Source: a virus
Virus record (IMG/VR): IMGVR_UViG_3300008223_000001
Coordinates: 1 to 56,960 of that record
DNA length: 56,960 nt
Reading direction: 5' to 3' (one strand)
Part shown: positions 1 to 46,066 of the stretch, one piece after another
Numbering within the stretch: position 1 is the stretch's first letter
How the letters are laid out: every line of letters starts with the position of its first letter
Position numbers and translations under genes: made by a program
The notes under the pieces: model-generated
Seen by the model: only the letters and a program-made list of their open reading frames with translations
Told to the model about the DNA's origin: nothing
The model's database searches: none

Positions 1-123
1 CTTGCTGAAAAGAATAAACAAAGCCTCGCAAGTGGGCGCTAAAGCTGGGAGTCGTCCTAAATTTAGCCGACGACGTAATGCGCCGGACGAAAAACCAGCA
101 AGCATTCGTGACAAGATGAATGC
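1..123. repeat. Terminal overlap, copy 1 (identical to 56838-56960)
   Basis: Base-by-base comparison: cttgctgaaaagaataaacaaagcctcg...gacaagatgaatgc is present at both ends. It lies inside a continuous reading frame. Confidence 0.95.
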
Positions 124-3007
124 GGCCGGTGGCGTTGTTAAGCATAAAGCGGATGCCATTCGTAACTTAAAGCTTGATGATTTGATGGCGATGTCGAAAG
201 ATCGTCGTGCCGTGATGCTTAATTTGATGACCGGCTTGCAGATTGAAGAGGTCTATAAATCGGTGTTTGATCAGATCAAAGCCGGTAATCCTTTGACGGA
301 GTATGCGAAGTTACTGCAAAGCATGGATGCCGTGCGCAATAACATCATGCACGATGCTGAAATGATTAATCAGTTATGGGACAAATTGAGCCCTAAAGAA
401 AGTGAAATCATGTCAGATCTAATGCTCGATGCGACATTTATGGGCCTGAATCCCGATCGCAATTACACAACGAGAGTGAATGTCGTCGGGATCAACAAGC
501 GCTTAGACACCATCCAGAAGCAATTAAATCATGCTGACTTTTTCAAGGACAGTAGTGAGGCCGCCATGTTATCGCTCAAAGGCGAACAAAAGCGACTCAT
601 GCGTGAACTCGATAACGAGAACCAGCGCCGACTCGCCTACCCTGTCTTGCGTAATCGTTATGAATCCATGTCAGATGAAGCCGTTGAAGTGTATCAGGCG
701 GTGAAAGGTTTCTTTGATAAGCAATGGGAAGATCAAAAGCGAGCCGTGCTCGATCGTATTGACCGTGCCTTTAATGATGATCCGGAAGCGTCGGACGTGG
801 CCAAAGAGGAAGTTGAGGCGATCTTTATGAAACGCTTAAAAGACGGCCCTTACTTTCCGCTTTCTCGTTTTGGTGACTTTGTATTAATTGCCAAGAAGGG
901 TGATGAATATATCCGTGAACATTTTGAGAACAGCACCGCGCGTGATCATCAGGCCAGTAAGTTTGAGGATCTTGGTTATGTTGTGACGAAAACAAAGACG
1001 AAAGAGTTTGTGCCAACCGACCTTGGCGACGTACCGGCCTTTGGGTCGGAAGTGTTCAGTTTACTCGATGATCATTTAGTCGGGGAACGGTTCCAAGACC
1101 TGAAAGACGACCTGAAGGACGATATTAATCAGCTGATTTTGAAAATGATGCCAGATGTCAGTTCGCTAAAACATTCGATCCATCGTAAAAAGATCAAAGG
1201 TTTTTCACAGGATTCACGTCGTGCCTTCTCACACACCGCCTTTCATGGTGCACACCATCTTACCCGTATCAAGCACGCTGATTTAATGCAGCATGAAATT
1301 GATGCGATGACGGATGAGGTCGACACCCTTGAAAAGTTACCGGAAAAAAGCGCGATTAGAAAAGACCAGGGGGACGTTGCGCGTGATGTTGCGAATCACA
1401 TGCGCGTACGCCACCATAAAATCATGAATCCGGACGCCTCGCCTTGGACAGCCTATGCCGGCAATCTTGGGTTTGTGATGTATTTGGGCTTTAGTTTGGG
1501 GGCTGGCTTAGTCAATTTGACCCAAACCGGCTTAATTGTCGCGCCGAAAATTGGCGCTAAGTATGGGCTGAAGGCCGCCTTTAAGGAATTGAACAAAGCC
1601 TTATTGCAATATACCCGCGCGCCTTTCAAGAAGGGAACTTATGAGTCGTGGAAATCCTTAAGCCGGAGTCAGGAGATTAAAAACGATGAGCGAGCGATGT
1701 TGATTCAATTGATCCGTGAAGGAACGATCGACACCACACAAGCCCACTCATTGGCCCAACTGTCTGAAACCGATACCCGTATGAGTAAAGAGGGTAATTT
1801 AAGCGAAAAAACCACACGATTTATGCGCTATAGCTCTGCCCTCTTTCATAATGCCGAGACCTTGAACCGAGAAGTCGCAGCACTGGCAGCGTATCGTATT
1901 GCGGTGAAAAATGGCGTGGACAAAGAGGCGGCTAAGATTTACGCCCGAAAAATGATTAACGATGGTCACTTTAATTACACCTCCACGAACCGCTCACAAT
2001 TCATGAAGAATGATGTGGTGAAAGTGCTCACACAGTTCCGGCAGTACTCGCAACACATATTGTTCACCTTAATTCGTGATACGCATCAAAGCCTCAAAGG
2101 TGAGACCAAAGAGATTAAACGGGAAGCACGCAAGGAATTGTCGGGCATTCTGGCACTACATTTTGTGGTGGCGGGGTTCTTAGGTCTGCCGTGGTTAGTT
2201 CAAGCGCCAATTTTATTAATGGGCAACTTGTTCCGTGATGATGACGATGAGCCCTACGAATTTGAAGATGATGCGCGTTCTTGGTTAGCTGAAAATCTTG
2301 GTGAAACCGCCGCAACCGCGTTGATGAAAGGCACCATTAATGCGTTGACGCCATTTGATTTGCATAGTCGGGTGAAATTAGACGGCCTACTGGTAATGAG
2401 CAACGACCGCGACTCTGAAATCAGAGACACCGGCGACATTATTATGCGGATGGTGGCCGGCCCAATGGGGGGATTACTCAGCAATTATGCACGAGGAGTC
2501 GACAATATTTCACAAGGCAATATTGAACGCGGCATCGAGAGTCTTGTGCCTAAAGCAGTACGTGATGTCATGCGATCAGGGCGTTATGCGGATGAGGGCT
2601 TGGTGGATTACAACGGCAATGAATTGATTCAGGAATTTACGGCACCGGAATTAGTGGGCCAAGCTGCGGGTATCGCGCCGGCGCGAGTGGGCGATTATTA
2701 CAAGGAAGCCAATGCTTTTAAAAACGCACAGAAGCGAATAGAGAAGCAACGTAAAACCATGCTGCGAAACTATGCCAAAGCGGCCGAAGATGGCGACGAC
2801 ACGAGCCGTGAGCAGTTGTTGGATGAAATGATTGAGTTCACTCAGAAGTACCCGACCCGTGCGATCTTTGCCGACAGTATTGTGCGATCAATGATGAGTC
2901 GAATTAAGCGTCGTCAGAAATTCGAGAACGGCATTTACTTACCCGACACCTACAACTTTCTTAGAAAACGAATTAACTTTAGAGGCAATGCCAATGACGA
3001 GTCATAA
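2..3007 (+). CDS. Giant polyvalent protein, 3' part (last 1,001 codons; PLxRFG region with hydrophobic hairpins)
   Basis: At 56821 the frame reads ...YTDLAF LLKRINKASQ..., which is the start of the listed 2..3007 ORF. 10,772 + 3,007 nt = 13,779 nt, divisible by 3. The 'M' at position 2 in the track is an internal TTG Leu. Motif PYFPLSRFGDF is present. Hydrophobic segments are YAGNLGFVMYLGFSLGAGLVNL (about 1444-1560) and LSGILALHFVVAGFLGLPWLVQAPILLMGNLF (about 2140-2235). TAA is at 3005-3007. Confidence 0.9.
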   Translation: MLKRINKASQVGAKAGSRPKFSRRRNAPDEKPASIRDKMNAAGGVVKHKADAIRNLKLDDLMAMSKDRRAVMLNLMTGLQIEEVYKSVFDQIKAGNPLTEYAKLLQSMDAVRNNIMHDAEMINQLWDKLSPKESEIMSDLMLDATFMGLNPDRNYTTRVNVVGINKRLDTIQKQLNHADFFKDSSEAAMLSLKGEQKRLMRELDNENQRRLAYPVLRNRYESMSDEAVEVYQAVKGFFDKQWEDQKRAVLDRIDRAFNDDPEASDVAKEEVEAIFMKRLKDGPYFPLSRFGDFVLIAKKGDEYIREHFENSTARDHQASKFEDLGYVVTKTKTKEFVPTDLGDVPAFGSEVFSLLDDHLVGERFQDLKDDLKDDINQLILKMMPDVSSLKHSIHRKKIKGFSQDSRRAFSHTAFHGAHHLTRIKHADLMQHEIDAMTDEVDTLEKLPEKSAIRKDQGDVARDVANHMRVRHHKIMNPDASPWTAYAGNLGFVMYLGFSLGAGLVNLTQTGLIVAPKIGAKYGLKAAFKELNKALLQYTRAPFKKGTYESWKSLSRSQEIKNDERAMLIQLIREGTIDTTQAHSLAQLSETDTRMSKEGNLSEKTTRFMRYSSALFHNAETLNREVAALAAYRIAVKNGVDKEAAKIYARKMINDGHFNYTSTNRSQFMKNDVVKVLTQFRQYSQHILFTLIRDTHQSLKGETKEIKREARKELSGILALHFVVAGFLGLPWLVQAPILLMGNLFRDDDDEPYEFEDDARSWLAENLGETAATALMKGTINALTPFDLHSRVKLDGLLVMSNDRDSEIRDTGDIIMRMVAGPMGGLLSNYARGVDNISQGNIERGIESLVPKAVRDVMRSGRYADEGLVDYNGNELIQEFTAPELVGQAAGIAPARVGDYYKEANAFKNAQKRIEKQRKTMLRNYAKAAEDGDDTSREQLLDEMIEFTQKYPTRAIFADSIVRSMMSRIKRRQKFENGIYLPDTYNFLRKRINFRGNANDES
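857..874 (+). other. PLxRFG signature
   Basis: Codons ccg ctt tct cgt ttt ggt give P-L-S-R-F-G. Confidence 0.7.
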
Positions 3008-3586: not shown

Positions 3587-3968
3587 TTGCCACCTCGCTT
3601 AATGCTGCCTTTAATCTTTGCTTTAGATTTTCTAAATCTGTAATAGTATCATTCAATCTTAGCACAACATTCGTTTCCATCGCGTCGCATAGGTCGTATC
3701 TAAATCTTTTCAAGGAATCGATGGTTCGTGCGATGTCCTGAGTCTGCTTTCTGACTACAACACTATTGTATCGATCAACAATAAGCGGTGGGAGTGCTGC
3801 TCTGTCTTTATGAAATGCCTTGCACGATCCGCAATAGTAGTTTTTAACGTCATTTTGGTTGTAGCTTGATTTTAAGCACACCTTGCAGTGAATGGCTTTG
3901 CTATTCTGATTGTCGTCATAAAATATTTCGTATGCGTTTGAGCTTTCTAGTGTTTTAAAGTTAAGCAT
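3576..3968 (-). CDS. Zinc-ribbon protein, hypothetical
   Basis: 130 aa. CKVC...CGSC pairs, followed by a helical C-terminus. Confidence 0.5.
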   Translation of the reverse strand: MLNFKTLESSNAYEIFYDDNQNSKAIHCKVCLKSSYNQNDVKNYYCGSCKAFHKDRAALPPLIVDRYNSVVVRKQTQDIARTIDSLKRFRYDLCDAMETNVVLRLNDTITDLENLKQRLKAALSEVANGV

Positions 3969-4674
3969 TTTTACGTTCCAATTTTTTAAGTTCTATTTTT
4001 ATCTGCATTAGGTGTCTTGCTTCAATGCCATGACTTCGAGCAAGCGCTCTGAGTTGGTGTCGCTTTTCTATCCAAGTACGCAGCGTCATAAGTGCAACGT
4101 TAAACAATTCTGCTACTTTGACCTGTGATGTTCCGTTGTTGAGCTCCATAATAATGTCGCTTTCATGGATATCTAATTTGCTTTTGATAATCGCGCCAAT
4201 GGCTCGACCGTTGGTTAATCCTCGTTTGCTTCTAATTTCGCACGCGGTGGTTGCTTTATGTGCCCTTCCCTCTGATAATTTCATCGCCCCAAAGGCTTCA
4301 CCTAGCAATAAAAACATCGTACTGGCCTCATTTTCAACTGAGGAATCAATTACTGTTCGGGAATAACAAAAAACAATCTGCGCCCCCGTATCAATAATGG
4401 CTTGAACTAAGCCGACTACCGCCATCGGCTTTTGGCGACTAATCCTCGCCACGTCCGACACCAAAACAATATCCCCCTTGTTTAGCTTGCCTGCTAAATC
4501 TAACCAGCCTCTTTGCTCGATCGTCGTATTGTATCCAGAGACATTACGTTCGATGAAGTTCTTTGCTGGGATGAGCAAGCCCTCTTCAGTGGCATATTTT
4601 GAAATAGCATGGCGCTGAGCGCGTGAATCTTGTTTGTCCGAGTCACTGACTCTTATATAGGCATAAACGGTCAT
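3961..4674 (-). CDS. Small serine recombinase (resolvase/invertase family)
   Basis: MTVYAYIRVSDSDKQDSRAQ (YxRVSxxxQ catalytic Ser motif). VLVSDVARISR. C-terminal HTH VKVAELFNVALMTLRTWI. The likely start is the ATG at 4674 rather than the track start at 4755. Confidence 0.85.
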   Translation of the reverse strand: MTVYAYIRVSDSDKQDSRAQRHAISKYATEEGLLIPAKNFIERNVSGYNTTIEQRGWLDLAGKLNKGDIVLVSDVARISRQKPMAVVGLVQAIIDTGAQIVFCYSRTVIDSSVENEASTMFLLLGEAFGAMKLSEGRAHKATTACEIRSKRGLTNGRAIGAIIKSKLDIHESDIIMELNNGTSQVKVAELFNVALMTLRTWIEKRHQLRALARSHGIEARHLMQIKIELKKLERKNA

Positions 4675-4892
4675 TTTTTGTACGACTTCCTTGATGTCTA
4701 GTTTAGAGGTTTGATTTACCGTTAAACTGTATAGGATTGTGATGAATTCAGCCACTACTTTCTTATATAGTTTAGAGATTACTCTAGACTATGTTTGTTT
4801 TGGGTGTTGGTAGATCAGCAATGTGCGATCTAAATAAATCGGTTTTATCGGGTCGCACTTGTAGGTTTATCAGGAATTTTTAAGGTTAAAAA

Positions 4893-5329: not shown

Positions 5330-5414
5330 TTGAGCGGTGCATAACTAAATAACTTGTTAACATGTTAATAGATCTTTTTATAATAGTAAGAGACACTTTG
5401 ATCATTTATTGATC
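5330..5414. promoter_or_regulatory. AT-rich segment with three GATC sites (candidate unwinding element)
   Basis: GATC at 5371, 5400 and 5411, within a visibly AT-rich stretch between the iterons and the 3' end of repA. Confidence 0.4.
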
Positions 5415-6288
5415 ATAACGGCTTTTTCTTGTGTTTTTTGGCTAAAGATCCAATCGGCATCGGTTTTGGTCTCGCTATCACAACGTTATCAACTAACGTT
5501 AATTTATAATCAGGGATTAAGTTCGCTGTGATACGTTTATTAAGCTGCTTCCTAAATCCGATAAGGTTTTCAACCGACCCCGATCGCTTATGAAGATTCT
5601 CTATACGAATCGGCCATTTCTTTTGATTATGACAATGCCTATTCGCTAATTCATACAAACGACGATCTAGCGCTGCTCTGATTTTGAAGTAATCAGGATT
5701 AATCGTGGCAAAGTTTTTGGGATCTTCTAGCGACTCAAGCAGGACAGAGGGCAATTCAAGCTTAATACTGAGCATTCGACCATCTTTCTTATCATCGGTT
5801 CTAACCACGTCAAAATCATCAAGAAGGTTAAAAGACCGGATACGCTTTGTTTCACTCTTCTCGTTTTTTAAAACAATCTCTATATTAGTGTGCTTTAAGC
5901 GACGTAAAGCCGCCAATAAGCGATCATAGTCATCAGCCGAAGGCTTAGGTCTCTTTCCAGTACGATTAGTCGTCATGAGAAGGTCATGAGCTATCAGCAG
6001 CACATCTTTACCTATTGGCTCATTCCTATTCTTAGCCGCCATTAAATGACTCATACAATAGATAATCACATCTTTGTCATGAATCGTGGCATGACCAACC
6101 TCAAGACCAGGCGTAACTTTTATTTTCACCCTGTCATCTTCATAAACTCGAATATGCTTATCAATTTCATGCTCTTGAACTTTAGCGGCTGTATTGCTTA
6201 AGCTGTAAAGAGGTGCAGACATGGACTCTAAGTCGTCTTTAAACGAAACATCGAACAAATCACACACGAAAAGGTCTATTTGATCCAT
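5413..6288 (-). CDS. repA: Plasmid replication initiator (RepA / 'replication initiator protein A' type)
   Basis: 291 aa. The N-terminus DLFVCDLFDVSFKDDLESMSAPLYSLS matches the pattern I know from RPA-family initiators. It is adjacent to the iteron array. Confidence 0.7.
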   Translation of the reverse strand: MDQIDLFVCDLFDVSFKDDLESMSAPLYSLSNTAAKVQEHEIDKHIRVYEDDRVKIKVTPGLEVGHATIHDKDVIIYCMSHLMAAKNRNEPIGKDVLLIAHDLLMTTNRTGKRPKPSADDYDRLLAALRRLKHTNIEIVLKNEKSETKRIRSFNLLDDFDVVRTDDKKDGRMLSIKLELPSVLLESLEDPKNFATINPDYFKIRAALDRRLYELANRHCHNQKKWPIRIENLHKRSGSVENLIGFRKQLNKRITANLIPDYKLTLVDNVVIARPKPMPIGSLAKKHKKKPL

Positions 6289-10099: not shown

Positions 10100-10383
10100 A
10101 GTGTTTTAATCTCCTTGATTAGCCGCTCATCTGTTGCTTTTGATCCGATCGAAATCAGCGCACGAATAACGGTTGTTTCTGATATTTTTCTACCGGTCGC
10201 CTTTCTTAGCCGCATAACCATAATGGTTAGTTGGGCTTTGTCGTCAGGCTGTAGACGAAACGACGTAGGCTTGACCGCGCCTGTTTTGACAGGCTTAGGT
10301 TCTGACGTTGGCGAGTCAGAGGTTTGTTTGTCCTCAATGTGCTGAGTTAGCTTTGACTTAATAACGCGTTTAGAAGCTGGCAT
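10093..10383 (-). CDS. Small partition-partner / centromere-binding protein (RHH-like)
   Basis: 96 aa, overlapping the 3' end of parA by 14 nt. Basic, flexible N-terminus, then SFRLQPDDKAQLTIMVMRL, which resembles a ribbon-helix-helix. Confidence 0.5.
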   Translation of the reverse strand: MPASKRVIKSKLTQHIEDKQTSDSPTSEPKPVKTGAVKPTSFRLQPDDKAQLTIMVMRLRKATGRKISETTVIRALISIGSKATDERLIKEIKTLL

Positions 10384-11134
10384 TTAGCACCTCTTTAGAT
10401 AATGACTTGAACTGCTTTGCGCATTTACTATGAGGCATATATTTCGCGATCGGCAATTGCTCGCGTTTGCTATCTTTCATATAAACTGTGGCGGATATTG
10501 TTGTCTTGGCTACCCGTTCTCTTATCACCTCAAGCTCTTGATCGTTTACCTTATTTAACCGGCGTTGTCGGCCGTCAACCATGCTTTGCACAACCATGTA
10601 ATTGATATCATCGGTTTCTTTGACCTCTTCAATTTTCTTCAAAAGAAAAGCGATGCCATTGATTGCATCTGAACCCCCTTCTACGGGAATAATAAAGTCA
10701 TCGGAGGCAAAGGCGGCGATCTCTCCGAGAGTCCCCAGTGACGGGGGGCAGTCGATGATAACGTGGTCGAATTGATTCTTGAGAGGTTTAAGCAGATTCG
10801 CGAGGCGCTTCTCTTTATGTAACGACACGGATAATTGCGGCACAAGCGTCGCCAAGTAGTGAGAACCAGGCACTATAAAAAGGTTCTTATATTCTTCCCC
10901 TTCTGGACTGGTCGCGGGAACTATCAGTTTCGTTAGATCGTAACGAGCATTTAGAAGCGCTTCACTGATGTTAGGCGCGTCATCCGATACATAGACGTCA
11001 CTGCCGTTTCTTTGCTCATCCAAATCAACCAATAGGGTACGCTTGTCAGCTAATGCCAACTCGTAGCAGAGGTTGTAGGCAACCGCCGTTTTACCAACCC
11101 CACCCTTATTATTAAATATTGCTGTGACTCTCAT
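10370..11134 (-). CDS. parA: ParA/Soj-type partition ATPase
   Basis: Deviant Walker A: MRVTAIFNNKGGVGKTAVA. Also VIIDCPPSLG. Confidence 0.9.
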   Translation of the reverse strand: MRVTAIFNNKGGVGKTAVAYNLCYELALADKRTLLVDLDEQRNGSDVYVSDDAPNISEALLNARYDLTKLIVPATSPEGEEYKNLFIVPGSHYLATLVPQLSVSLHKEKRLANLLKPLKNQFDHVIIDCPPSLGTLGEIAAFASDDFIIPVEGGSDAINGIAFLLKKIEEVKETDDINYMVVQSMVDGRQRRLNKVNDQELEVIRERVAKTTISATVYMKDSKREQLPIAKYMPHSKCAKQFKSLSKEVLNASF

Positions 11135-12111: not shown

Positions 12112-12306
12112 TTAACCCGCGTCCTGTTCAGCGAATATACGCGCTTCATAAACTTCGGTGCGATCAATTTTTATATGTCTTGGCGCATCAATACCAATTT
12201 TGCCCTCGCGTCCGCTGTCATCCATTCCTAAGAAACAAATCAAAATCTCAGCACCACCGGCCTGAATCATGAACGACTGGTCTTCTTTACGGCGTAGTAT
12301 CAGCAT
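12112..12306 (-). CDS. csrA: CsrA/RsmA-family RNA-binding regulator homologue
   Basis: MLILRRKEDQSFMI ... KIGIDAPRHIKIDRTEVYE aligns with E. coli CsrA (MLILTRRVGETLMI ... RIGVNAPKEVSVHREEIYQ). There is a 5-aa insertion in the middle loop. Confidence 0.75.
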   Translation of the reverse strand: MLILRRKEDQSFMIQAGGAEILICFLGMDDSGREGKIGIDAPRHIKIDRTEVYEARIFAEQDAG

Positions 12307-14140: not shown

Positions 14141-14336
14141 CCTAGTATTGACCCCTTTGGCTCTTACCTGAGCCTCTAATTTAAAGGGTCTTAATACCGC
14201 ACATAATAATACCTAAATCACAATAAATCAAAAATGCGTGATTATTAGACACTTGATAAAAATACTAATCGCTTTATTATTGACAATCTTTTTAGAGCTA
14301 TTACGCCAAAAAGATACTAATAAACATAGGATTATC
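14141..14336. promoter_or_regulatory. Divergent early control region
   Basis: 196-bp AT-rich gap between divergent genes. It contains TTGACC, TTGATA and TTGACA hexamers and a repeated ATACTAAT. Promoters and operators were not mapped. Confidence 0.5.
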
Positions 14337-15413
14337 ATGGTTTCTGATGCCCACTACACATCAAATGTTATCCCGCTCTACGCAAACGATGAGGGAATAA
14401 ATTACATCCGTTCATTAGTCACGACGCTGAATGCCTTAACACAGTGCAGCTTATCGGATCGTTGCCATCGAATTTTTAATGTCGTGCTGACGCGCTCATT
14501 CGCTAACGAAAAAGCCTACACCACACTCAGTACCCGCGAAATCGCCGCCGCCATCAACTACACCGGTGCCTTAACCCACATTCGCAGTGATTTACGCCGC
14601 CTTGAGGATCAAAACCTCATACTCCGGCATGGTGTAAACATCTATCCAAACCCTCATTGTGAGGAGTGGATAAACGACCAAACAGACAGAAATCAGTCCG
14701 TTTCAAGTAAAAATACGGACAAATGGGCCAGAAAGATCACGAAGAACAAAGGCTTAAGAAAAAGTAAGGGGAGTAAAAGCAAAGGTAAGCAGACAGAAAA
14801 GCGTCCGCAAACAGACAGAAAAACGGCCTCAAAATCGGACAGTACTGTAGAGTCTTTTAATAATACAGAGTCTTTATTGTCAGATACCCAAAAACCTCCC
14901 GAAAAAATTCCTGAAAAAGCCCCCGCACCAAAGCTTGAACCCGACGACGATCGATACATTGTGTCACCCAGTGGCCACAAGTGGGGAAATGAGCACGATG
15001 TCATGCTCGCAAAACATATCTATCAGCGCGTCAATGAACGTCGTGAGATTAGCTTACCCCACTGGTATAACTGGGCGAATGAAATCCGGCTTACGCGTGA
15101 ACAAGATGGTCGAGACCCGCGACATATTCGCGCACTCTTTGATTATGCGATGGATCATTCGTGGTGGCGGGATGCGATCGAAGGGCCAGCAAGCTTGAGA
15201 AAGAACTGGCGTAAGTTGGGGCTCGCACGTCAAAAAGAGCGCAATAGCGGCAGAGAACCTGAAACTAGGCCATCCGGCACCGGTAACGCCAGTCTGGATA
15301 AGATCAAACAAGAAAACAAAGCAATGCACAAGAATCATCTGAAGGGCAAAGGGGCAGGGAACGCAGCATTAAGCGAACTATTGGGTAGAGGCCGACCGGC
15401 AAAGAATGAATAA
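14337..15413 (+). CDS. Putative replication/origin-organising protein with a winged-helix N-terminus
   Basis: It is the first gene of the rightward early operon. It has a Lys-rich linker and a Trp-rich C-terminal region (WYNWANEIRLTREQDGRDPRHIRALFDYAMDHSWWRDAIEGPASLRKNW). ATG 14337 is preferred over the track start at 14238. Confidence 0.3.
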   Translation: MVSDAHYTSNVIPLYANDEGINYIRSLVTTLNALTQCSLSDRCHRIFNVVLTRSFANEKAYTTLSTREIAAAINYTGALTHIRSDLRRLEDQNLILRHGVNIYPNPHCEEWINDQTDRNQSVSSKNTDKWARKITKNKGLRKSKGSKSKGKQTEKRPQTDRKTASKSDSTVESFNNTESLLSDTQKPPEKIPEKAPAPKLEPDDDRYIVSPSGHKWGNEHDVMLAKHIYQRVNERREISLPHWYNWANEIRLTREQDGRDPRHIRALFDYAMDHSWWRDAIEGPASLRKNWRKLGLARQKERNSGREPETRPSGTGNASLDKIKQENKAMHKNHLKGKGAGNAALSELLGRGRPAKNE

Positions 15414-15852
15414 AATCGTATTACACCAAGAAGCTGATCGTAGTCGATTAATTAGCTTTATCTTAGCGCTTGAATTGAATGTGAAGACTGCAATTGAATT
15501 CGCTTGGAAGGACTTCAAACGAAGACGATCAAACAGTGCAAACGGTTTGTATTTTACATGGATGGGGATTTTGGCTATTTATTTTACCCGTGAAACACAT
15601 ACGTTTCATAAAGATCAAATGCACCGAATGATGAGACATTTATTTTTGGGCTATGAAGGGGATTTAAAAATGGGCCGCACCACAATCAAAGGCGATCTTA
15701 AATCGACCAAAGGCATGGAGACATTACCTTTCTGTTTTTACATGAACAAAGTTGATATGTGGGCCGCCGAACGAGGCTGCCTGCTACCAAGACCAGAAGA
15801 CAATAAATACACCGAATATGTTGAAAGGAATTGTGATGGCGCTGAAGGGTAA
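15406..15852 (+). CDS. NinB/Orf-like recombination protein
   Basis: The layout RRRSNSANGLYFTWMGILA ... STKGMETLPFCFYMNKVDMWAAERGCLLP parallels lambda NinB (RSLDQNRKLWA ... STSRM..EF...I..FG.E.GV). Confidence 0.45.
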   Translation: MNKIVLHQEADRSRLISFILALELNVKTAIEFAWKDFKRRRSNSANGLYFTWMGILAIYFTRETHTFHKDQMHRMMRHLFLGYEGDLKMGRTTIKGDLKSTKGMETLPFCFYMNKVDMWAAERGCLLPRPEDNKYTEYVERNCDGAEG

Positions 15853-16192
15853 AACACCAAGAAAGGCTGAAAAAGAATGGCTCGCTGCAATCTGCGACCT
15901 TGGATGCATTGTTTGTTTACGAGAATTTGAACTCGATAGTTTGGCCTGCCCTCATCACATTGATGGCAAAACAAAACCGGACGCGCATTACATGACCATC
16001 CCCCTGTGTGGTAATCACCACCAAGGCGGTATGGATACAGCCGAATGCACGTCTCGTCATCCCTACAAATTCAGATTTGAGGAACGTTACGGCACTGAAC
16101 TTGAGCTTTGGGACGACTGCAACGAACGCCTTGAATTTTTTATCACTGGAGAGCTGTATGACGAATGCGCAAGACGAATTGGCAACGCCTAA
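15836..16192 (+). CDS. Ref-like / HNH-type recombination-enhancement nuclease
   Basis: KEWLAAICDLGCIVC...CPHHIDGKTK...IPLCGNHHQGG. The internal ATG at 15836 overlaps the upstream stop. Confidence 0.5.
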   Translation: MALKGKTPRKAEKEWLAAICDLGCIVCLREFELDSLACPHHIDGKTKPDAHYMTIPLCGNHHQGGMDTAECTSRHPYKFRFEERYGTELELWDDCNERLEFFITGELYDECARRIGNA

Positions 16193-16559
16193 AAAAATTA
16201 AAGGCGTGAATGATATTAATTTTCACATGAATGAAAATTTCTACAGAGCGAACGGCCGGCGCTACCAAGTTAAAAATTTGATTGAGTGCTCGAAAGATCT
16301 ACCCGTGATTACCATCCCAATACAAGCGATCTACTTAGGGGCAAGCCCGTGGGGGCTAAAGAATTTTAAAAGCTTCATTCATCATTTAACGCGAGTAATT
16401 GAGTGCGACTTGGAGTATCCAATTTTATTAGATGACGAAGGGTATATCGCCGACGGGTGGCACCGCCTTGCTAAAGCGATCATGGATGGGAACGAAACGA
16501 TTGAAGCACGCCGCATTACTGTGATGCCCGAAGGGATGGCCGATGACGATACTGAGTGA
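16158..16559 (+). CDS. ParB-like nuclease (sulfiredoxin-fold) domain protein
   Basis: PILLDDEGYIADGWHRLAKAIMDG (the DGxHR motif). Confidence 0.55.
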   Translation: MTNAQDELATPKKIKGVNDINFHMNENFYRANGRRYQVKNLIECSKDLPVITIPIQAIYLGASPWGLKNFKSFIHHLTRVIECDLEYPILLDDEGYIADGWHRLAKAIMDGNETIEARRITVMPEGMADDDTE

Positions 16560-17292
16560 ATTGCTTGAAGCAGGACAACATCTTGATGATGCGGGGGCAA
16601 GAAAACTCGCCACTAAATTGAGTGAAGAGGGAGAAAAAATTCTCGCGGATAAGGATAAAAGCAAACTTAAAAAGCGACACGAACTGATTATGAATTTAAG
16701 CGCCTTTCAAGCTGGAATGGCTTGTGACGAATTAAATGAAAAGAGCAGAAGATCAAAGTTTTTTCCAAAATTAGCAACGATAGATATGAGGGAAAGCATG
16801 AATAAAGCACGATTACAGTCAAAGTTAAATAACATTACAAGTACTGAAAATAAGGTTTACAACGTAGTTTCATATAGCACTCCTATGACTGTCAACGACA
16901 TAACATCTGATTTAAGCGATAAAGGCGTGGTTCTTCAAAAGCCCAACCTGATAAGAGCGATCAATTGTTTAATCGATGCGGGTTTAATAAAGAAAGCAGG
17001 GCATTTTAAATTTTTGAAAACGGATGAAGAACCAATGAACGAAACTAAAACTAAACCTAAAAAAGCAGCGAATATCAATTCTAAGCCAACACTCAATCCA
17101 GCGCCGGTAAGTTCCACTAAATTAGAGTGCGATCCAATTCTTGAGCTTATGATATTAGGCGAAGCTTTGATGAAGATGGCTGAACAGGTTGAAGTTATCT
17201 CAAGAACCGTTATTGCCTCACTTAATACAAACGACGAAAAACAGCAAAAGCTCGAAAACCTAGCAACGGCCTTAAAAGAATTGTCAGTTTAA
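16543..17292 (+). CDS. Hypothetical protein with a MarR-like winged helix
   Basis: NKVYNVVSYSTPMTVNDITSDLSDKGVVLQKPNLIRAINCLIDAGLIKK. Confidence 0.45.
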   Translation: MTILSELLEAGQHLDDAGARKLATKLSEEGEKILADKDKSKLKKRHELIMNLSAFQAGMACDELNEKSRRSKFFPKLATIDMRESMNKARLQSKLNNITSTENKVYNVVSYSTPMTVNDITSDLSDKGVVLQKPNLIRAINCLIDAGLIKKAGHFKFLKTDEEPMNETKTKPKKAANINSKPTLNPAPVSSTKLECDPILELMILGEALMKMAEQVEVISRTVIASLNTNDEKQQKLENLATALKELSV

Positions 17293-17322
17293 CCAGGCGC
17301 AATTAAAAACCAAGAGGATTGA

Positions 17323-17553
17323 ATGATGAGTGAAGGGATAGATTTAACAAGACTCGGTGCGCCAGAGCACGCCAGAGCAATCGATAGTTTTAAAGATCAA
17401 TTGTTGATCGCGTTAGTTCGTCGTCAAGCGGACAGCAAAGGCGAATTAACCATTTCGGCAGTTGAGGTCGATACCACCGAGCATGTGATGTTGAAGATGG
17501 AAGCCAACCCCAAGTTGGGTGAATTCAAATTTATAATTGAACATAAGCATTAA
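17323..17553 (+). CDS. Hypothetical protein
   Basis: 76-aa ORF preceded by aagagga. Confidence 0.5.
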   Translation: MMSEGIDLTRLGAPEHARAIDSFKDQLLIALVRRQADSKGELTISAVEVDTTEHVMLKMEANPKLGEFKFIIEHKH

Positions 17554-17564
17554 GGATTTTTTTT

Positions 17565-17978
17565 ATGATACTACATTTATTTTCTGCTATAGCGTTCGTT
17601 GAAGCAGCGCTTGAAGCGGCTGAAACCGGCTTTGTTCGTTGTGAAAATTGTGACTCCCAAGAAGACACAAAAGATTTGGATTTCATTGGCAACATTAAGG
17701 CGGCAAAAGACCAACTGCTTCACGCCACGCTCAGTTTAAACAGTACTGGCCGTTATTTCATATTTCATTTTGCTTCAGGCCTAGCACGCGGCAATCATTT
17801 GATTTGGACGGAAGGCGGCAGATTTCCCACTACAAATTTCATTTTAGACGTAATAGCGAAGGAAAGCGGCCTTAAAACGGATGAAATAGTCATCACGGGA
17901 TGGACGGAGTTTAAAAGCGAGCAAGATTTTAATGACTATAGATCGGCAAGCAATCACCAAGAGATTGAGCAAGGTTGA
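17565..17978 (+). CDS. Hypothetical protein
   Basis: 137-aa ORF. Confidence 0.5.
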   Translation: MILHLFSAIAFVEAALEAAETGFVRCENCDSQEDTKDLDFIGNIKAAKDQLLHATLSLNSTGRYFIFHFASGLARGNHLIWTEGGRFPTTNFILDVIAKESGLKTDEIVITGWTEFKSEQDFNDYRSASNHQEIEQG

Positions 17979-18235
17979 TCTATCAAGATTATGCCAATTT
18001 GATTTTAGATGAACATGAGATCAACACACGGCGAAAAATATTAACCGCCCTTGAACAAAGTAAAGGGCTTATTTTTCGCAATACCGTACAGAACCTTGTT
18101 TGGATTCAATATCTAGCAGGGAAAGACTTTAGGATGACAGGGTGGAGGAACCAGCACATTCAAGATATTAAAAAAGGTTTGTTATGTCAGAAGACATTCA
18201 AGAAGCTCCTTATGAATCCGCTTACGCTTGCTTAA
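17975..18235 (+). CDS. Hypothetical protein (TTG start)
   Basis: 86-aa ORF. It overlaps the next gene by 52 nt, so it is weak. Confidence 0.3.
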   Translation: MIYQDYANLILDEHEINTRRKILTALEQSKGLIFRNTVQNLVWIQYLAGKDFRMTGWRNQHIQDIKKGLLCQKTFKKLLMNPLTLA

Positions 18236-18705
18236 GTCGTATTATTCCCCCACCTGAAGGGCGCGCTAAGTCCGTAAACCTACAATGCCAGCAAGGCATG
18301 ACACAAAATCCAGATGCCGTCACGTATTTGGATCGCGTGGCGCAAGATGCGATAGCATTACGCGTGGTAGAAGCGTACATTGCTAGTCATGATCCCGCTT
18401 GGCTTTATTTGTATGGCCATTTCGGTGACCTCAATCAAAAGAAATTAGCCGTGACTTATCTCGCTAAGCGAATCATGCCAGCCCTTGAAACAGAGATAGA
18501 CAAGGGCTTTGTTGAGGATATCGTGAAAAAATGGGCGGATGTGAGCGGCTATGCAACCATTGAGCAATGGACGACGAAACTAGAAAAGTCACAACCGACC
18601 CTTTACCGTTGGCAAAAAAAGGTCCGAAGACACTTGCTGGAAGGCTTTTGTCGCGCGGTCGATGAAGCCGAAACAATTTTGCATCAGAGGAATTTCATAA
18701 AATAA
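18184..18705 (+). CDS. Hypothetical protein; possible late regulator with a C-terminal HTH
   Basis: 173 aa. C-terminal segment SQPTLYRWQKKVRRHLLEGF. It is the last gene of the early-right block. The call rests on position only. Confidence 0.3.
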   Translation: MSEDIQEAPYESAYACLSRIIPPPEGRAKSVNLQCQQGMTQNPDAVTYLDRVAQDAIALRVVEAYIASHDPAWLYLYGHFGDLNQKKLAVTYLAKRIMPALETEIDKGFVEDIVKKWADVSGYATIEQWTTKLEKSQPTLYRWQKKVRRHLLEGFCRAVDEAETILHQRNFIK

Positions 18706-18769
18706 CGTTTGGTTATTAGATTCGATTTGCTTAGAATCAAATTAGGATTAATACTCACGAGGAATTGGA

Positions 18770-19225
18770 ATGAAATCGGCACGAACAAAAAGAAAAATAC
18801 TACTGATTGATGATAATAATGATGATTGTCTGTTGTTTGAGCGCGCGCTTAATTATGCAGAAACCGAAAACAGCGTTTCAATGATCGCAACCCGAAACGT
18901 CACGGAGGCCCACAACGAGATCAATAGCGACTCACGCTTACCGGATGTTATTTTTATCGATTACAATTTACGCGACCTAGATGATCCACTGGCGTGCCTG
19001 CATTTCATCGTAGAAATGAAATCAAACGACTGGACGAACTGGATTCCCATTGTGGTTTTCACCGATCAATTGAATCCCGACGATACAATCATCGAGGTGA
19101 TGCGAGGCGGGGCCAGTAGTTTCGTCTCTAAAAACAGCGATAGCCGTGAAGTCTTTTATATTGATATCATTTCGGCAGTGAATTACTGGGTTGATTTTAA
19201 TCTCACCCCGCACAATGGCTTATAA
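18770..19225 (+). CDS. Stand-alone response-regulator receiver (CheY/Rcp1-like) protein
   Basis: KILLIDDNNDD (acidic pocket), PDVIFIDYNLRD (phospho-acceptor Asp), IPIVVFTDQ (Thr), SSFVSKN (Lys), and the C-terminal YWVDFNLTP tail typical of single-domain receivers. Confidence 0.8.
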   Translation: MKSARTKRKILLIDDNNDDCLLFERALNYAETENSVSMIATRNVTEAHNEINSDSRLPDVIFIDYNLRDLDDPLACLHFIVEMKSNDWTNWIPIVVFTDQLNPDDTIIEVMRGGASSFVSKNSDSREVFYIDIISAVNYWVDFNLTPHNGL

Positions 19226-19231
19226 GCACCG

Positions 19232-19690
19232 CTAAGGCAGGTCGTCCAAACCTTTAATGTTTGATCGATTACGGGTTATTTTATTGATTTTATGTTCACC
19301 GGTTGTGAATTGTAATAGTGTGTTGATCGCCTCGATGACGTCATTATCTGCATTTTGTAGCCGCTCAATGAGGGCATTAAAATTGGAGTCAGAGCTATTA
19401 CGATGATAAAACGCATCAATTCGAGAGATATACCGCGCGTCCTGCTCGCTCTCATTTGTACCGGTGGTTAAATAATGAAAGTTCATTTTTAAGGCGAGAC
19501 ACAATCTTAGAATGTAATTGATATCATTCGGCATTCCCGTTGACGCGTGATTCTCCCAACGTGTATACGTATTGCGGCTCACGCCAACTAGCATTGCAAG
19601 ATCGGTTTTGGATAGTTTTTTATCCACCCGCGCGCGCTTGAGGCGCTGAGAAAACTCAAATTTTTCAACAGAACGTTCACATAAACGCAT
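19232..19690 (-). CDS. XRE-family transcription factor
   Basis: FSQRLKRARVDKKLSKTDLAMLVGVSRNTYTRWEN. ATG 19690 is preferred, because the track's N-terminal extension looks non-coding. It is convergent with the receiver gene, 6 bp away. Confidence 0.75.
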   Translation of the reverse strand: MRLCERSVEKFEFSQRLKRARVDKKLSKTDLAMLVGVSRNTYTRWENHASTGMPNDINYILRLCLALKMNFHYLTTGTNESEQDARYISRIDAFYHRNSSDSNFNALIERLQNADNDVIEAINTLLQFTTGEHKINKITRNRSNIKGLDDLP

Positions 19691-19865
19691 AAAAACCCAG
19701 TTACTAAAACAAATAAAACATAAAAAATGACACACCAATGGTGCATAATAGCACAAAACCGTGTTTTTGCTCTGTTGGCGATACAATCCTCGTTTGGCCT
19801 TGAAAAATAAAACAGTTATGTTTGATGGTTAAATATAACAACCAGAGATTCAAAGAGAATAAATC
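19691..19865. promoter_or_regulatory. Divergent control region between the XRE gene and the small ORF
   Basis: 175 bp, AT-rich, with an imperfect palindrome agcacaaaaccgtgtttttgct (19750-19771). Confidence 0.4.
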
Positions 19866-20066
19866 ATGTGCAGTATCCAAGAAAAAATTAACCAAATGAT
19901 TGAAAGTGCTGAAGGCTCAGCAGTCGTTTCGGTAATTTCTACACTCGATATCATGACGCAACTCAGCAAAGAAGGGCGAGACTATATAACGGCGATCGCA
20001 AAAGACCGCTTGAAGTGTGAGCTAATGCTGCTCTCAAGTGAGACAGACACCTGCAAGCTGCCCTAA
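19866..20066 (+). CDS. Small ORF (66 aa) divergent from the XRE gene
   Basis: MCSIQEKINQMIESAEGS... has protein-like composition. No family recognised. Confidence 0.45.
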   Translation: MCSIQEKINQMIESAEGSAVVSVISTLDIMTQLSKEGRDYITAIAKDRLKCELMLLSSETDTCKLP

Positions 20067-20221
20067 AAATACAATTTATTTTAACAAATAGCTCTTTTGG
20101 TGTTGATAGCTCTGATAGAGTTATGTAAGATTCGTCTATCTTGAAGCGTAGTGGTTTTGAGTGAAGTGGTTTCATATTATTCCTAGTAGTAAATTTCAGA
20201 TTACCAGTGTTACTTTTTCAG

Positions 20222-20253
20222 CCCGTCATTTTCTCAAGTGACGGGTTTTTTTT
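20222..20253 (+). terminator. Rho-independent terminator
   Basis: cccgtca-ttttctcaag-tgacggg followed by T8. Confidence 0.8.
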
Positions 20254-32075: not shown

Positions 32076-32654
32076 ATGCCAACAAAGATAGACTTAGATG
32101 ATTCAAAAGCAGCGAACCCGAATTATGTAATGAGCATGGGCGACCTAATGTTCTTCTGGTCAGGAGGACAGGGATATGCGGGTTCGATACAAAAACTAGC
32201 AGAATTGATCATTCAAGCCACCGTGGCGGAAGTTTCCCAACCAGCCATATCCCACGCAATCGTGAAGTTCGGCGATAGCTTAGAGGACGGAAGAGAGCCC
32301 TCTTTTGGTGGAACCTTTGAATGGAAAGAAGTTGTTATCGATACCGAAGGTTTTTTCTCAGCCGGTTTCCCCTCTAGATTTACCATTCCAGCCGGTGTCA
32401 CGTTAGTCGAAGTGGGGGTAACCATTGACATTCCCGTCGCAGATACCTTAGTGACTCCCAGCTTAATTAAGATCACAAAAAATGGTGACGCGGAAGCCAT
32501 TGTGACCACTCAAATTACCCAAGCGGCGACGTTAGTGTCGCCTCCTATTGCGGTTGTTGGCGGTGATTATATCGAGATTAATCCCAATACGACCATGTAT
32601 ATGAATGTTCCGACGAGCCGCTATTGGATCAAAGTACTTGAGCGAGGTGCGTAA
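32076..32654 (+). CDS. Structural protein, hypothetical
   Basis: ATG 32076 (MPTKIDLDD...) lies just after the upstream stop. Confidence 0.5.
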   Translation: MPTKIDLDDSKAANPNYVMSMGDLMFFWSGGQGYAGSIQKLAELIIQATVAEVSQPAISHAIVKFGDSLEDGREPSFGGTFEWKEVVIDTEGFFSAGFPSRFTIPAGVTLVEVGVTIDIPVADTLVTPSLIKITKNGDAEAIVTTQITQAATLVSPPIAVVGGDYIEINPNTTMYMNVPTSRYWIKVLERGA

Positions 32655-33886
32655 TGATATACGTCGTTTTAAAAAGCGCAGACGATGAACCCGCATTTAC
32701 CAAACTGCTTGACGATGAAGGCTACACGTATACCGACTTTAAGAACCTCCCGACCATGTTTAGCGTCAATACACCGCTAAATACCTTTAAATTTAAAGAG
32801 AGTCCCTTAATTGAAAGTATCGATGATGGTGATGAGGGGGAAAGCCAGCCAACTTCATTTGATTACACAGATACACCCTTGCCAGATTGTCGTTCTCGAC
32901 GCAGAGATTATACCGATGTGGGCTCGGCTGAACGGGGGGACTCGTGGGCACTGGCTCGAATGTGTAGACGGAAGAACCCCTTTAGCAGAACCCGTGCACC
33001 TTATAACAGTCAACCGTCATTCAAACGAGCAACCCGAACAGGGGTGGGCGTTAATATTTATATCGTGGATCTTGGTATGGACACCTCGCATCCTGATTTT
33101 GAAGGGCGTGCATTTGGCTTAGACGGCAACCCGTTTATCTGGGATTTTCCTGATTCGGGCAATCACGGCTTATTAACCTCGTCTAATACTATTGGTAAAC
33201 GATGCGGGATGGCGACCGGTGCAACGCTGTACTTTGAAGATGCCCCCCTTATTGATAGTCACAAAGGGCAAATGATCCCCAAAATTGACGCGATTATTGC
33301 TCACTACATTGCACAGGGTAAACCTGCCGTTGTCAGCTTTTCCATTGGAGTAAAAGCAGCCACCCAAGCTTCATCCATGGCGGCGTTTAGACTTTTGGCC
33401 GATGCTGGCTTAATAAGCTGTCATTCTGGGGGTAATAATTTTGAAGACTTTGTGACACTGCCCAGAGCGTTTACTGATAGCGACGACGACATGATCGTCG
33501 TGGGTGGCTCTAGCATCGATGACAATTTAATGCGGTTCAATATCGGGGGTACAGGCTCAAGCGAACGTGTCGATATTTATGCCCCTGGTCAAGCATTGTT
33601 GACGGCGTGGCCTAACAGCAATTACAGAGGGGCGTCAGGCACTAGCATGGCAACACCGCTAGTCGCTGGCGTACTTGCGTGCATGCTCGAAGGTTACCAA
33701 AGAATGACCACCCGCGCCGAGGTGCAAGCGCTCAGAAAGAAGTTGATCGAAAATTCCACCAAAGGGGTTTTACGCGTTTCGGAAGTTGATAGGCAGAAGT
33801 TTCACTTTTTTGATAATAAAAACCGTCTCGTATACCTAGATCCAGAATTAGCAATTGAAGATATTGAAGGGCTGACAAAAGCATGA
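32654..33886 (+). CDS. Subtilisin-like serine protease (S8) with an N-terminal propeptide-like region
   Basis: Asp: VNIYIVDLGMDTSHPDF. His: SGNHGLLTSS. Asn: HSGGNN. Ser: GASGTSMATPLVAGVLA. The N-terminus MIYVVLKSADDEP...FKESPLIESID resembles an I9 propeptide. No signal peptide. Confidence 0.8.
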   Translation: MIYVVLKSADDEPAFTKLLDDEGYTYTDFKNLPTMFSVNTPLNTFKFKESPLIESIDDGDEGESQPTSFDYTDTPLPDCRSRRRDYTDVGSAERGDSWALARMCRRKNPFSRTRAPYNSQPSFKRATRTGVGVNIYIVDLGMDTSHPDFEGRAFGLDGNPFIWDFPDSGNHGLLTSSNTIGKRCGMATGATLYFEDAPLIDSHKGQMIPKIDAIIAHYIAQGKPAVVSFSIGVKAATQASSMAAFRLLADAGLISCHSGGNNFEDFVTLPRAFTDSDDDMIVVGGSSIDDNLMRFNIGGTGSSERVDIYAPGQALLTAWPNSNYRGASGTSMATPLVAGVLACMLEGYQRMTTRAEVQALRKKLIENSTKGVLRVSEVDRQKFHFFDNKNRLVYLDPELAIEDIEGLTKA

Positions 33887-44785: not shown

Positions 44786-46066
44786 ATGTCGGGTTTTGGG
44801 TACATGGCAAGGGGCTATAACAATTTTCGCAGAGAAAGTCGTCGTGAAGATATTCAAGATGAACAGCGCGAGCGAACCACAGATAGTTATGAGTATGAAA
44901 AAGGGCTACGTCCTTTGAAAGAAGAGGCGTTACGTGCAGATATAGAGGCTAAGAAAGCGAATGGCGTGGGCTTAGGTTTAAACAATAAACTGAAGCAAAA
45001 CGACGTCGATCGACTTCCAACGACCAATGCGACGACGGATAAGAAAACCGAACTCGGCTTAAAAGCGCTCAAACAAGAAACCGATCAAAATGACATCGAA
45101 AGCGATTTTCTTCGTCAAGGTTTGGAAGATAAACAGACCTTAACCCAACAACAAATTAAGTCGAACCAGATGTCGCAAAGTATGATTGGTGAAAAATGGG
45201 ATGAAGAGAAAAACGCATGGTCAGATAAAGCGCGCATTCTCGCCTCGACCGCGACCAATGCCGAATTACAAACCTTGATTGCTGAAATTGACTTGGATAA
45301 TGCGAGGCTTGTTCAAGGCGTGAAGTCGGCCGAAACTGAAACCGCGCTCATGGGAAATCTCACTAAGCAACAAGCCCTTGTGTATAAGTTAATGGTCAAT
45401 GGTGAGAGCAAGATGGCGGCCGATTCATTGAACCGCAATAAGTTCAACGACATCGATACTGCCGCTGATATTTTCATTGATGACAAGACGGGTGACGCCA
45501 TCATTCTCGATGCGTCTGGTGAGGAGCTTAAGCGTATTACGAAAGAGCAGATGGACGGTTTCGCCCGTTTGTTTGATGAAAATACGACTAAAAAGGACAC
45601 GTACCAGCAAGACAGCACCGGCAAGTACTTCAAAGTCAGGGGCAATACGGCCTCGCCTGTTACGACGCCTGATGGTGAGCAGTTAGTGGGCGGTTTACCC
45701 AAAGGCTCCGGTAAATCGAGCGCCGGTGCGGTATCGGATAAGAAGTCTTTCCAAATTTCAATTAAGTATGGGGATGGAAAAGTTGAGGAGAAGAACTGGA
45801 CGAAAGCCGAGGCGCAGAAACACTATGAACAAAAATACAGCCTCATCCCGTCCGAACAATTAGATCAATTAATGCTGTCTGACCCGAAAGCGTGGAAATC
45901 CGCACTGCAAGAAAATAACGCTGCGCGTGAAGGTATTCCAAAGCTTGAAGAGTGGTTAGGCGATGTGATGAGCAATGGCATCCAATTAGGTGGCGGTGGC
46001 TTGCCTAGAAAAGAAGTTGCTGATGATGATGGTTCAAATGATGCGTTTTTTGAGGGCTTGAAGTAA
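44786..46066 (+). CDS. Putative internal virion/ejection protein (coiled coil)
   Basis: 426 aa, preceded by aggagtg. Its stop overlaps the ATG of the giant ORF. Confidence 0.4.
   Translation: MSGFGYMARGYNNFRRESRREDIQDEQRERTTDSYEYEKGLRPLKEEALRADIEAKKANGVGLGLNNKLKQNDVDRLPTTNATTDKKTELGLKALKQETDQNDIESDFLRQGLEDKQTLTQQQIKSNQMSQSMIGEKWDEEKNAWSDKARILASTATNAELQTLIAEIDLDNARLVQGVKSAETETALMGNLTKQQALVYKLMVNGESKMAADSLNRNKFNDIDTAADIFIDDKTGDAIILDASGEELKRITKEQMDGFARLFDENTTKKDTYQQDSTGKYFKVRGNTASPVTTPDGEQLVGGLPKGSGKSSAGAVSDKKSFQISIKYGDGKVEEKNWTKAEAQKHYEQKYSLIPSEQLDQLMLSDPKAWKSALQENNAAREGIPKLEEWLGDVMSNGIQLGGGGLPRKEVADDDGSNDAFFEGLK

Follow-up and report, generated by a model that had tools for sequence, protein, structure and literature searches.

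A single-domain receiver gene paired tail to tail with a rare XRE-type regulator gene in two phage lineages

The IMG/VR virus record IMGVR_UViG_3300008223_000001, analysed here over its whole length of 56,960 nucleotides (the window), carries at 18770..19225 (+ strand, ATG start) a gene for a single-domain, Rcp-type receiver of 151 amino acids (aa). Converging on it, at 19232..19690 on the − strand, is a gene for an XRE/Cro-CI-type helix-turn-helix (HTH) regulator of 152 aa, with an alternative TTG start at 19786. The two genes were found together in four variants from two phage lineages, which suggests that receiver and XRE constitute a portable two-gene regulatory module of ~0.9 kb. The reading that we tentatively favour, with a probability of about 0.45, is that host-derived phosphorylation may act through this module to modulate a phage repressor. 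An earlier note on the same DNA had described the receiver as an orphan and had proposed a link to the neighbouring XRE gene. The link is strengthened by the co-conservation of the pair. As to the word orphan, the receiver does lack a kinase, but it is not partnerless, a conserved XRE gene standing beside it in all four variants.

All the receiver motifs quoted in the earlier note are in place: LLIDDNNDD provides D14/D15, IFIDYNL D64, VVFTD T98, FVSKN K121, and YWVDFNLTP forms the tail. D14/D15, D64, T98 and K121 make up the catalytic set, and the aromatic switch position is occupied by F118. Pfam assigned residues 10-128 to PF00072 (Response_reg) with 36.8 bits against a cutoff of 30.2 (E 4.9e-9). 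An AlphaFold2 (AF2) model built on an alignment of the nearest relatives (pLDDT 90.4, pTM 0.87) gave a canonical (βα)5 fold, with the catalytic residues at the ends of β1, β3, β4 and β5, a long C-terminal helix (H126-143), and a loop between strand E60-64 and helix H75-85. This β3-α3 loop (residues 65-74, YNLRDLDDPL, encoded at 18962..18991, + strand) was delimited from the alignments and the AF2 secondary structure. When the receiver was aligned with its 29 nearest relatives, D15, D64, P93 and K121 were invariant, T98 fell in a Thr/Ser column, and the C-terminal 'YW...N..P' proved to be a true subfamily motif; the tail NYWVDFNLTP aligns with SYWLTVN of 3kht and EFWL of RcpA. Both Pfam and AF2 show the receiver domain covering nearly the whole protein, so that the claim of an absent output domain holds. 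A Shine-Dalgarno sequence, GAGGA, was read from the sequence at 18759..18763 (+ strand), 6 nt before the ATG. Judged from its sequence and model, the protein is a genuine single-domain receiver of the Rcp class, apparently competent for phosphorylation.

Rcp1, RcpA, RcpB and the bacteriophytochrome regulators are single-domain receivers partnered with phytochrome histidine kinases. The label 'Rcp1-like' was borne out by the best PDB sequence matches (3kht, RcpA, Rcp1 and RcpB) and by a fold search with Foldseek, which returned 188 PDB matches at E<=1e-3; our statements rest on the best 50 of these 188, every one of them a response-regulator or receiver-domain protein. Ranks 1-13 are taken by Rcp1, DrBRR, RcpA, RcpB, RPA3017, AtBRR and 3kht, all phytochrome-type single-domain regulators, the top matches reaching TM 0.76-0.80 on the query receiver. 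Like Rcp1, RcpA, RcpB, DrBRR, AtBRR, RtBRR and RPA3017, proteins of ~140-150 aa, the window receiver consists of one receiver domain with a full catalytic set, and it shares with the Rcp/BRR regulators an extended α5 bearing an aromatic 'YW/FW' C-terminal motif. Unlike them, it has no phytochrome or other kinase beside it or elsewhere on the replicon, and it sits on a phage-plasmid with an XRE repressor as partner. Its identity to the Rcp/BRR structures is merely 21-26%, and its β3-α3 loop has a 4-residue insertion relative to theirs. CheY and other cellular single-domain regulators have the same fold (ranks 15-50) but are more distant, at 14-19% identity. CheY proper was rejected as the identity of the receiver on account of this more distant structural match and the lack of che genes. 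A stand-alone receiver such as this one resembles CheY, DivK, Spo0F and the MrrA-type hubs or phosphate sinks, which signal through protein-protein contact or phosphate flux; unlike the CheY-type cellular regulators, it is carried by a phage, with no chemotaxis, cell-cycle or phosphorelay genes in cis.

Near relatives of the receiver are very few. A phmmer search of 1.84 billion representative proteins returned a single one, P0002 (33% identity, E 1e-16), all other matches being generic single-domain receivers at E 1e-11 or weaker. P0002 belongs to another temperate phage, of 51.5 kb, which encodes integrase, SSB, Cro, lambda-P and NinG (lineage 2 hereafter). There too the receiver gene meets a convergent HTH gene, whose product is 39-41% identical to the window XRE over ~120-130 residues, the non-HTH C-terminal part included. 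A third variant (L007) comes from a sediment metagenome, and a fourth was found in L067/L068. The tail-to-tail gap is +6 bp in the window, 0 bp for P0002, +1 bp in L007 and −4 bp, an overlap, in L067/L068. Among 5.8 billion proteins, a profile of the XRE family matched 3 clusters, each adjoining a receiver, and the family was absent from 54 loci (385 kb) with more distant receivers, also when a profile of the C-terminal domain only was used. With either the receiver or the XRE as query, word-indexed homology searches returned nothing but that query, and a profile search of genome contigs with the XRE alignment gave no match. A scan of IMG/VR with the receiver alone had none either, and with two-sequence alignments it recovered the lineage-2 phage only.

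The two genes have diverged in step. Receivers are 66-72% identical within lineage 2 and 29-34% identical between lineages; the corresponding values for the XRE proteins, C-terminal domain included, are 69-73% and about 35-41%, matching rates. For both genes pN is 0.17-0.21 against a saturated pS, with dN/dS of 0.07-0.16 where computable; both are under purifying selection. The DD pair, D64, T/S98 and K121 were kept in 4/4 variants, while the aromatic switch position holds F118 in the window protein and Y in its relatives. Of the other proteins encoded within the 15 kb that surround the cassette in lineage 2, just two, CsrA and a phrog_4405-like protein, are homologous to window proteins.

The location of the cassette is not shared. 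The window has it after the replication/nin-like genes and ahead of the late region. In lineage 2 its neighbours are the early-left genes on one side and CI/Cro on the other, and the receiver gene there is served by a conserved extended -10 promoter of its own (TGTATAAT). This comparison does not uphold the earlier proposal of a role that depends on a place at the end of the early-right operon: the function of the cassette seems position-independent, because in lineage 2 it has another place on the map and a promoter of its own. Divergent from the lineage-2 receiver is a gene for a GerE/LuxR-type HTH protein of 130 aa without a receiver domain (L003 4263-4918; also L007 ~340-400 and L067, reverse strand), and two conserved 16-bp direct repeats (ATAACTATTGGTTGTA, 25 bp apart) lie between the two genes. 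Together they look like a 'split NarL-type regulator', an arrangement absent from the window. Neither this GerE protein nor the 173-aa protein encoded upstream of the window receiver was retained as the conserved partner: they are mutually non-homologous, and not common to both lineages.

The XRE protein matches HTH_19 (32.0 bits, cutoff 30.2) and HTH_3 (30.5 bits, cutoff 23) in Pfam, an RstR-like family in NCBIfam, and phage-repressor PHROGs. Its PDB sequence matches are P22 C2, the ICEBs1 Xre regulator and SinR. AF2 produced a confident five-helix HTH fold (helices H10-76, pLDDT 74-89); beyond it come a helical C-terminal domain specific to the family (~residues 80-128) and, last, a basic tail. 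This tail is basic, variable and predicted disordered in all four variants, and in the L007 protein (L007 966-1454, − strand) it includes a run of eight threonines. The possibility that the C-terminal domain is an Hpt-like phosphotransfer domain was ruled out, as no His is conserved outside the HTH.

The distance of 6 bp to the convergent XRE gene, given in the earlier note, is exact: the spacer between the two stop codons occupies 19226..19231. A scan of the receiver-XRE junction for a bidirectional terminator found no terminator-like site, and at none of the cassette junctions did the RNA form a more stable hairpin than its shuffled controls (z = 0.05 and -0.16 for the window). On the far side of the XRE gene, the intergenic region 19691..19865 presumably contains the XRE promoter and operator. 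It separates the XRE gene from a divergent small open reading frame (ORF) of 66 aa (19866..20066, + strand) that has no Pfam or PHROG match. The equivalent position in lineage 2 also holds an ORF, with no detectable homology to that of the window, and it is uncertain whether the 66-aa ORF is part of the module.

A 123-nt direct repeat is found at the two ends of the window (1-123 and 56838-56960). This terminal overlap shows that the contig is circular and complete, a replicon of 56,837 bp with 46% GC, and it is this completeness that gives meaning to the absence of a kinase. Pfam and PHROGs profiles run on every window ORF of at least 200 aa, including a 4,592-aa ORF across the circular junction, detected no HisKA, HATPase_c, Hpt or other phosphorelay domain, and a Pfam pass over 40 smaller window ORFs detected no kinase or phosphorelay domain. 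When the 1,170 stop-to-stop frames of the window were searched, a HisKA+HATPase_c profile gave a best E of only 0.35, and a receiver profile had a single match, the ORF at 18770-19225 (1.8e-42). The statement that there is no histidine kinase anywhere on the replicon was thereby confirmed. No kinase was seen in the 15-18 kb around the lineage-2 receiver copies, and the short contigs of P0003, the next cellular relative of the receiver, have neither kinase nor XRE. Since the replicon has no kinase, any phosphodonor would have to come from outside it. The earlier note had gone further, stating that a host kinase must set the phosphorylation state; any donor would indeed be external, but it need not be a kinase, small-molecule donors being possible. 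Receiver domains can generally autophosphorylate from such donors, for example acetyl phosphate. The further ideas of the earlier note, that the receiver may wire-tap a host two-component pathway or serve it as a phosphate sink, and that it may feed the lysis-lysogeny decision, are still hypothetical.

Information on the host comes from lineage 2. One of its prophages was found at tRNA-Ser(TGA), beside yccA-like and tusD/C/B/E-like genes (L064, 15635-15725 and 15888-18027), on NODE_190 of assembly ERZ511465; the window replicon is NODE_303 of the same assembly. The best genome matches to the L064 flank are Oleiphilus/Oleiphilaceae metagenome-assembled genomes (MAGs), at 75-77% identity, and several of these MAGs were binned from SRR5469033, an accession adjacent to the phage-holding runs SRR5469034 and SRR5469068. 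Because of these flank matches, lineage 2 is assigned to a marine Oleiphilaceae host. For the window replicon, searches with RepA and TerL place the host no finer than Proteobacteria.

The mechanism that we propose would start with phosphorylation of Asp64 of the receiver by a donor from outside the replicon, which would be either a host histidine kinase with an Rcp-type partner of its own, or acetyl phosphate. Phosphorylation would switch the surface formed by α4-β5-α5 and the C-terminal tail, and the switched receiver would then bind the family-specific C-terminal domain of the XRE. The oligomerisation or DNA binding of the XRE would be altered, and the expression of phage promoters under its control would change. 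As the genes abut without a terminator, converging transcription would probably also make the two antagonise each other. Phosphorylation, the identity of the donor, the receiver-XRE contact and the regulated target are all steps that we infer. A more specific form of this proposal, a 'split response regulator' in which the receiver, phosphorylated by a host kinase or acetyl phosphate, docks on the private C-terminal domain of the XRE and flips a developmental or immunity switch, is possible, if doubtful.

Several observations weigh against a phosphorylation-dependent receiver-XRE module. Just four variants are known, in two deep lineages. The convergent layout is unusual for genes with interacting products, and a purely transcriptional coupling is possible instead. 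AF2 modelled the C-terminal domain of the XRE, the would-be docking site, with low confidence, and no operator motif common to the window and lineage 2 was found. In lineage 2, the stand-alone GerE-type HTH gene beside the receiver is an alternative partner. Concerning the receiver itself, the β3-α3 region normally faces the kinase or phosphatase, and in the window protein this loop, with its insertion, is without the subfamily's usual 'LP...G'. Like this loop, a charged residue, D99, at T+1 and N122 at K+1 set the window protein apart in the alignment. Either the odd loop or D99 could make phosphotransfer slower or altered. Lastly, the host of the window replicon is probably the same as that of lineage 2, or a similar one, on the sole basis of their co-occurrence in one assembly.

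Four other explanations were weighed against the proposed module. The receiver could be a phosphate sink or decoy, draining or titrating a host histidine kinase that has an Rcp-type partner and so rewiring a host pathway; the XRE would then merely control expression of the cassette, or be functionally independent. An intact catalytic set with no kinase in cis, and a single domain with no output domain, would suit such a role, and cells are known to use single-domain regulators as phosphate sinks (literature). The best PDB sequence match comes from Hahella, a member of the order to which the inferred Oleiphilaceae host belongs, and is compatible with capture from that host's lineage. A sink would leave unexplained, however, the constant tail-to-tail pairing with so rare an XRE family, as well as the matching divergence rate of the XRE and its conserved non-HTH domain; moreover, if the XRE regulated the receiver gene, one would expect to find it upstream or in divergent orientation, not convergent. 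We regard the sink as somewhat unlikely. An adaptor independent of phosphorylation (an atypical or pseudo-receiver), for instance one acting constitutively on the XRE as anti-repressor or co-repressor, has in its favour the lack of an encoded kinase, the unusual loop, D99 and N122 of the window protein, and the general precedent of phosphorylation-independent receivers. It is nevertheless unlikely, given that five catalytic residues and the aromatic switch position were retained across 29-34% identity, which would be unexpected if the chemistry were dispensable.

Slightly less likely still is a self-contained accessory module, apart from phage development, serving superinfection exclusion, defence, or as a toxin-antitoxin-like moron. 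The cassette does shift map position in otherwise mosaic genomes, it has its own extended -10 promoter in lineage 2, and XRE proteins are common as antitoxins and defence controllers. Weak PADLOC matches of the XRE to RmrA and to control proteins concern the HTH part only. On the other hand, the receiver matched no defence system in PADLOC and no toxin-like or effector domain is present, receiver domains are not known as toxins, and the GC content of the cassette is not anomalous, giving no sign of recent acquisition. As for a decaying, functionless hitch-hiker, that is, a captured fragment of a host gene, the absence of close relatives and the lone receiver without a kinase could be cited for it. 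The ORF is intact, however, with a good Shine-Dalgarno sequence and a confidently predicted fold; catalytic residues and synteny were kept in four variants, and pN is far under the saturated pS. Purifying selection and conserved synteny effectively exclude this last explanation, whose probability we consider negligible.

The surroundings of the cassette in the window provide a possible transcriptional context. Upstream, the co-directional early genes (O-like replication initiator, NinB, RecA-dependent nuclease and others) span 14238..18705 on the + strand, and the receiver gene starts after a 64-bp spacer. A promoter scan of this spacer (18706-18769) found no promoter-like site, and the receiver is probably co-transcribed with the early genes. 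Downstream comes a late-control region, so that the cassette lies between the two. This region comprises a promoter-like site at 20103-20131 (+ strand) and a strong intrinsic terminator at 20220-20247 (+ strand; 12-bp stem, 8-T run) directly before the lysis/late genes, both of them consensus matches only. With ~90 nt between promoter-like site and terminator, the layout of 20103-20247 is like that of lambda PR'/tR'. It suggests antitermination control, and the 173-aa protein (18184-18705), which has no family match, could be the antiterminator.

The element had been taken for a phage in the earlier note. Phage genes are indeed present, for TerL, portal/adaptor, major head protein, SU10-type adaptor, tail fibre and internal virion protein, yet it is no plain phage. 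Profile matches on the − strand identified a serine resolvase (3961-4755), a RepA of the RPA family (5413-6288, 193 bits) and ParA (10370-11134), and none of the profile scans of window ORFs found a Phage_integrase. Because RepA, ParA and a resolvase accompany the phage genes and no integrase was found, the replicon is classed as a putative phage-plasmid. The giant ORF of 4,592 aa (46066-56960 then 1-3007, + strand), a 'polyvalent protein', occupies ~1/4 of the replicon. It has an InPase domain, SNF2/DEAD/Helicase_C segments and an LPD39 domain, with weak matches to C5- and Eco57I-type methylases. A subtilase gene (Peptidase_S8, 79 bits; 32654-33886, + strand) is situated inside the virion structural module. 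The CsrA homologue of 64 aa is encoded at 12112-12306 (−) in the window and at 3659-3853 (−) of L003 in lineage 2, the two proteins being 35% identical. CsrA being a global RNA-binding regulator, both cassette-bearing lineages have in it a second mimic of a host regulator.

Receivers encoded by other viruses offer only remote comparisons. Megablast and tblastn searches of 50,697 phage records gave no match, tblastn with the window receiver included. Receivers are rare in deposited phages: in the same records a CheY probe matched 140, many of which look like host contamination, and an Rcp-type probe 11. The receiver does match phrog_731 and phrog_1479, two PHROG families of unknown function, and fold matches in BFVD are to phaeovirus/giant-virus hybrid kinases and to a few phage proteins of ~125-150 aa. 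Proteins such as that of Alteromonas phage PT11-V22 (149 aa) and the 'CheY-like receiver' of an uncultured Caudovirales are likewise virus-encoded and of the receiver fold, some of them single-domain and of ~125-150 aa. The likeness of the database viral receivers (phrog_731, phrog_1479, PT11-V22 and others) to the window receiver is at the fold or profile level alone, with 12-23% identity. To our knowledge none of the annotated viral receivers has been characterised, and we know of none that shares an XRE partner, the comparison having been made without genomic contexts.

Eavesdropping by phages on their hosts is known for quorum-sensing ligands and peptides. A conceptual parallel to the module is offered by phage VP882, in which VqmA(Phage) and Qtip allow a plasmid-like phage to eavesdrop on a host signal and proceed to lysis (PMC10426928). 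In both cases an extrachromosomal, plasmid-like temperate phage has a homologue of a host sensory regulator, and host information would enter a phage repressor circuit. VqmA, however, is a ligand-binding transcription factor rather than a His-Asp receiver, and experiments have shown that it is linked to the repressor by way of the antirepressor Qtip, whereas the receiver-XRE link in the window is deduced from synteny alone. Phage phiCDHM1 and the prophage protein TorI illustrate another kind of likeness, a viral element holding one piece or modulator of a two-component pathway of which the host supplies the rest. Of these, phiCDHM1 is the mirror image of the window, with the agrC kinase present and the regulator absent, and TorI is not a receiver, being an excisionase-fold inhibitor of a host response regulator. 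None of the three, VP882 included, has a receiver-XRE cassette. The module also departs from a classical two-component system, as no cognate kinase is encoded in cis and no output domain is fused to the receiver.

We know of no characterised phage-encoded receiver that directly uses His-Asp phosphotransfer, the commonest signalling chemistry of bacteria. With the split response regulator, if true, a phage would for the first time be seen to tap this phosphotransfer directly for its own decisions, and an Rcp-type single-domain regulator would have its first identified transcription-factor output. The cassette offers a candidate answer to the question of what single-domain regulators of the Rcp/phytochrome type signal to. 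Being made of two genes in ~0.9 kb, it is a small, clonable system in which to study viral readout of a host kinase or of the host's acetyl-phosphate pool. Should the pair act as a phosphate sink and nothing more, it would nonetheless represent auxiliary regulation of a new type among the genes that phages carry in marine, hydrocarbon-degrading Oleiphilaceae. The receiver-XRE module may let phages of marine Oleiphilaceae read a phosphorylation signal of their host.

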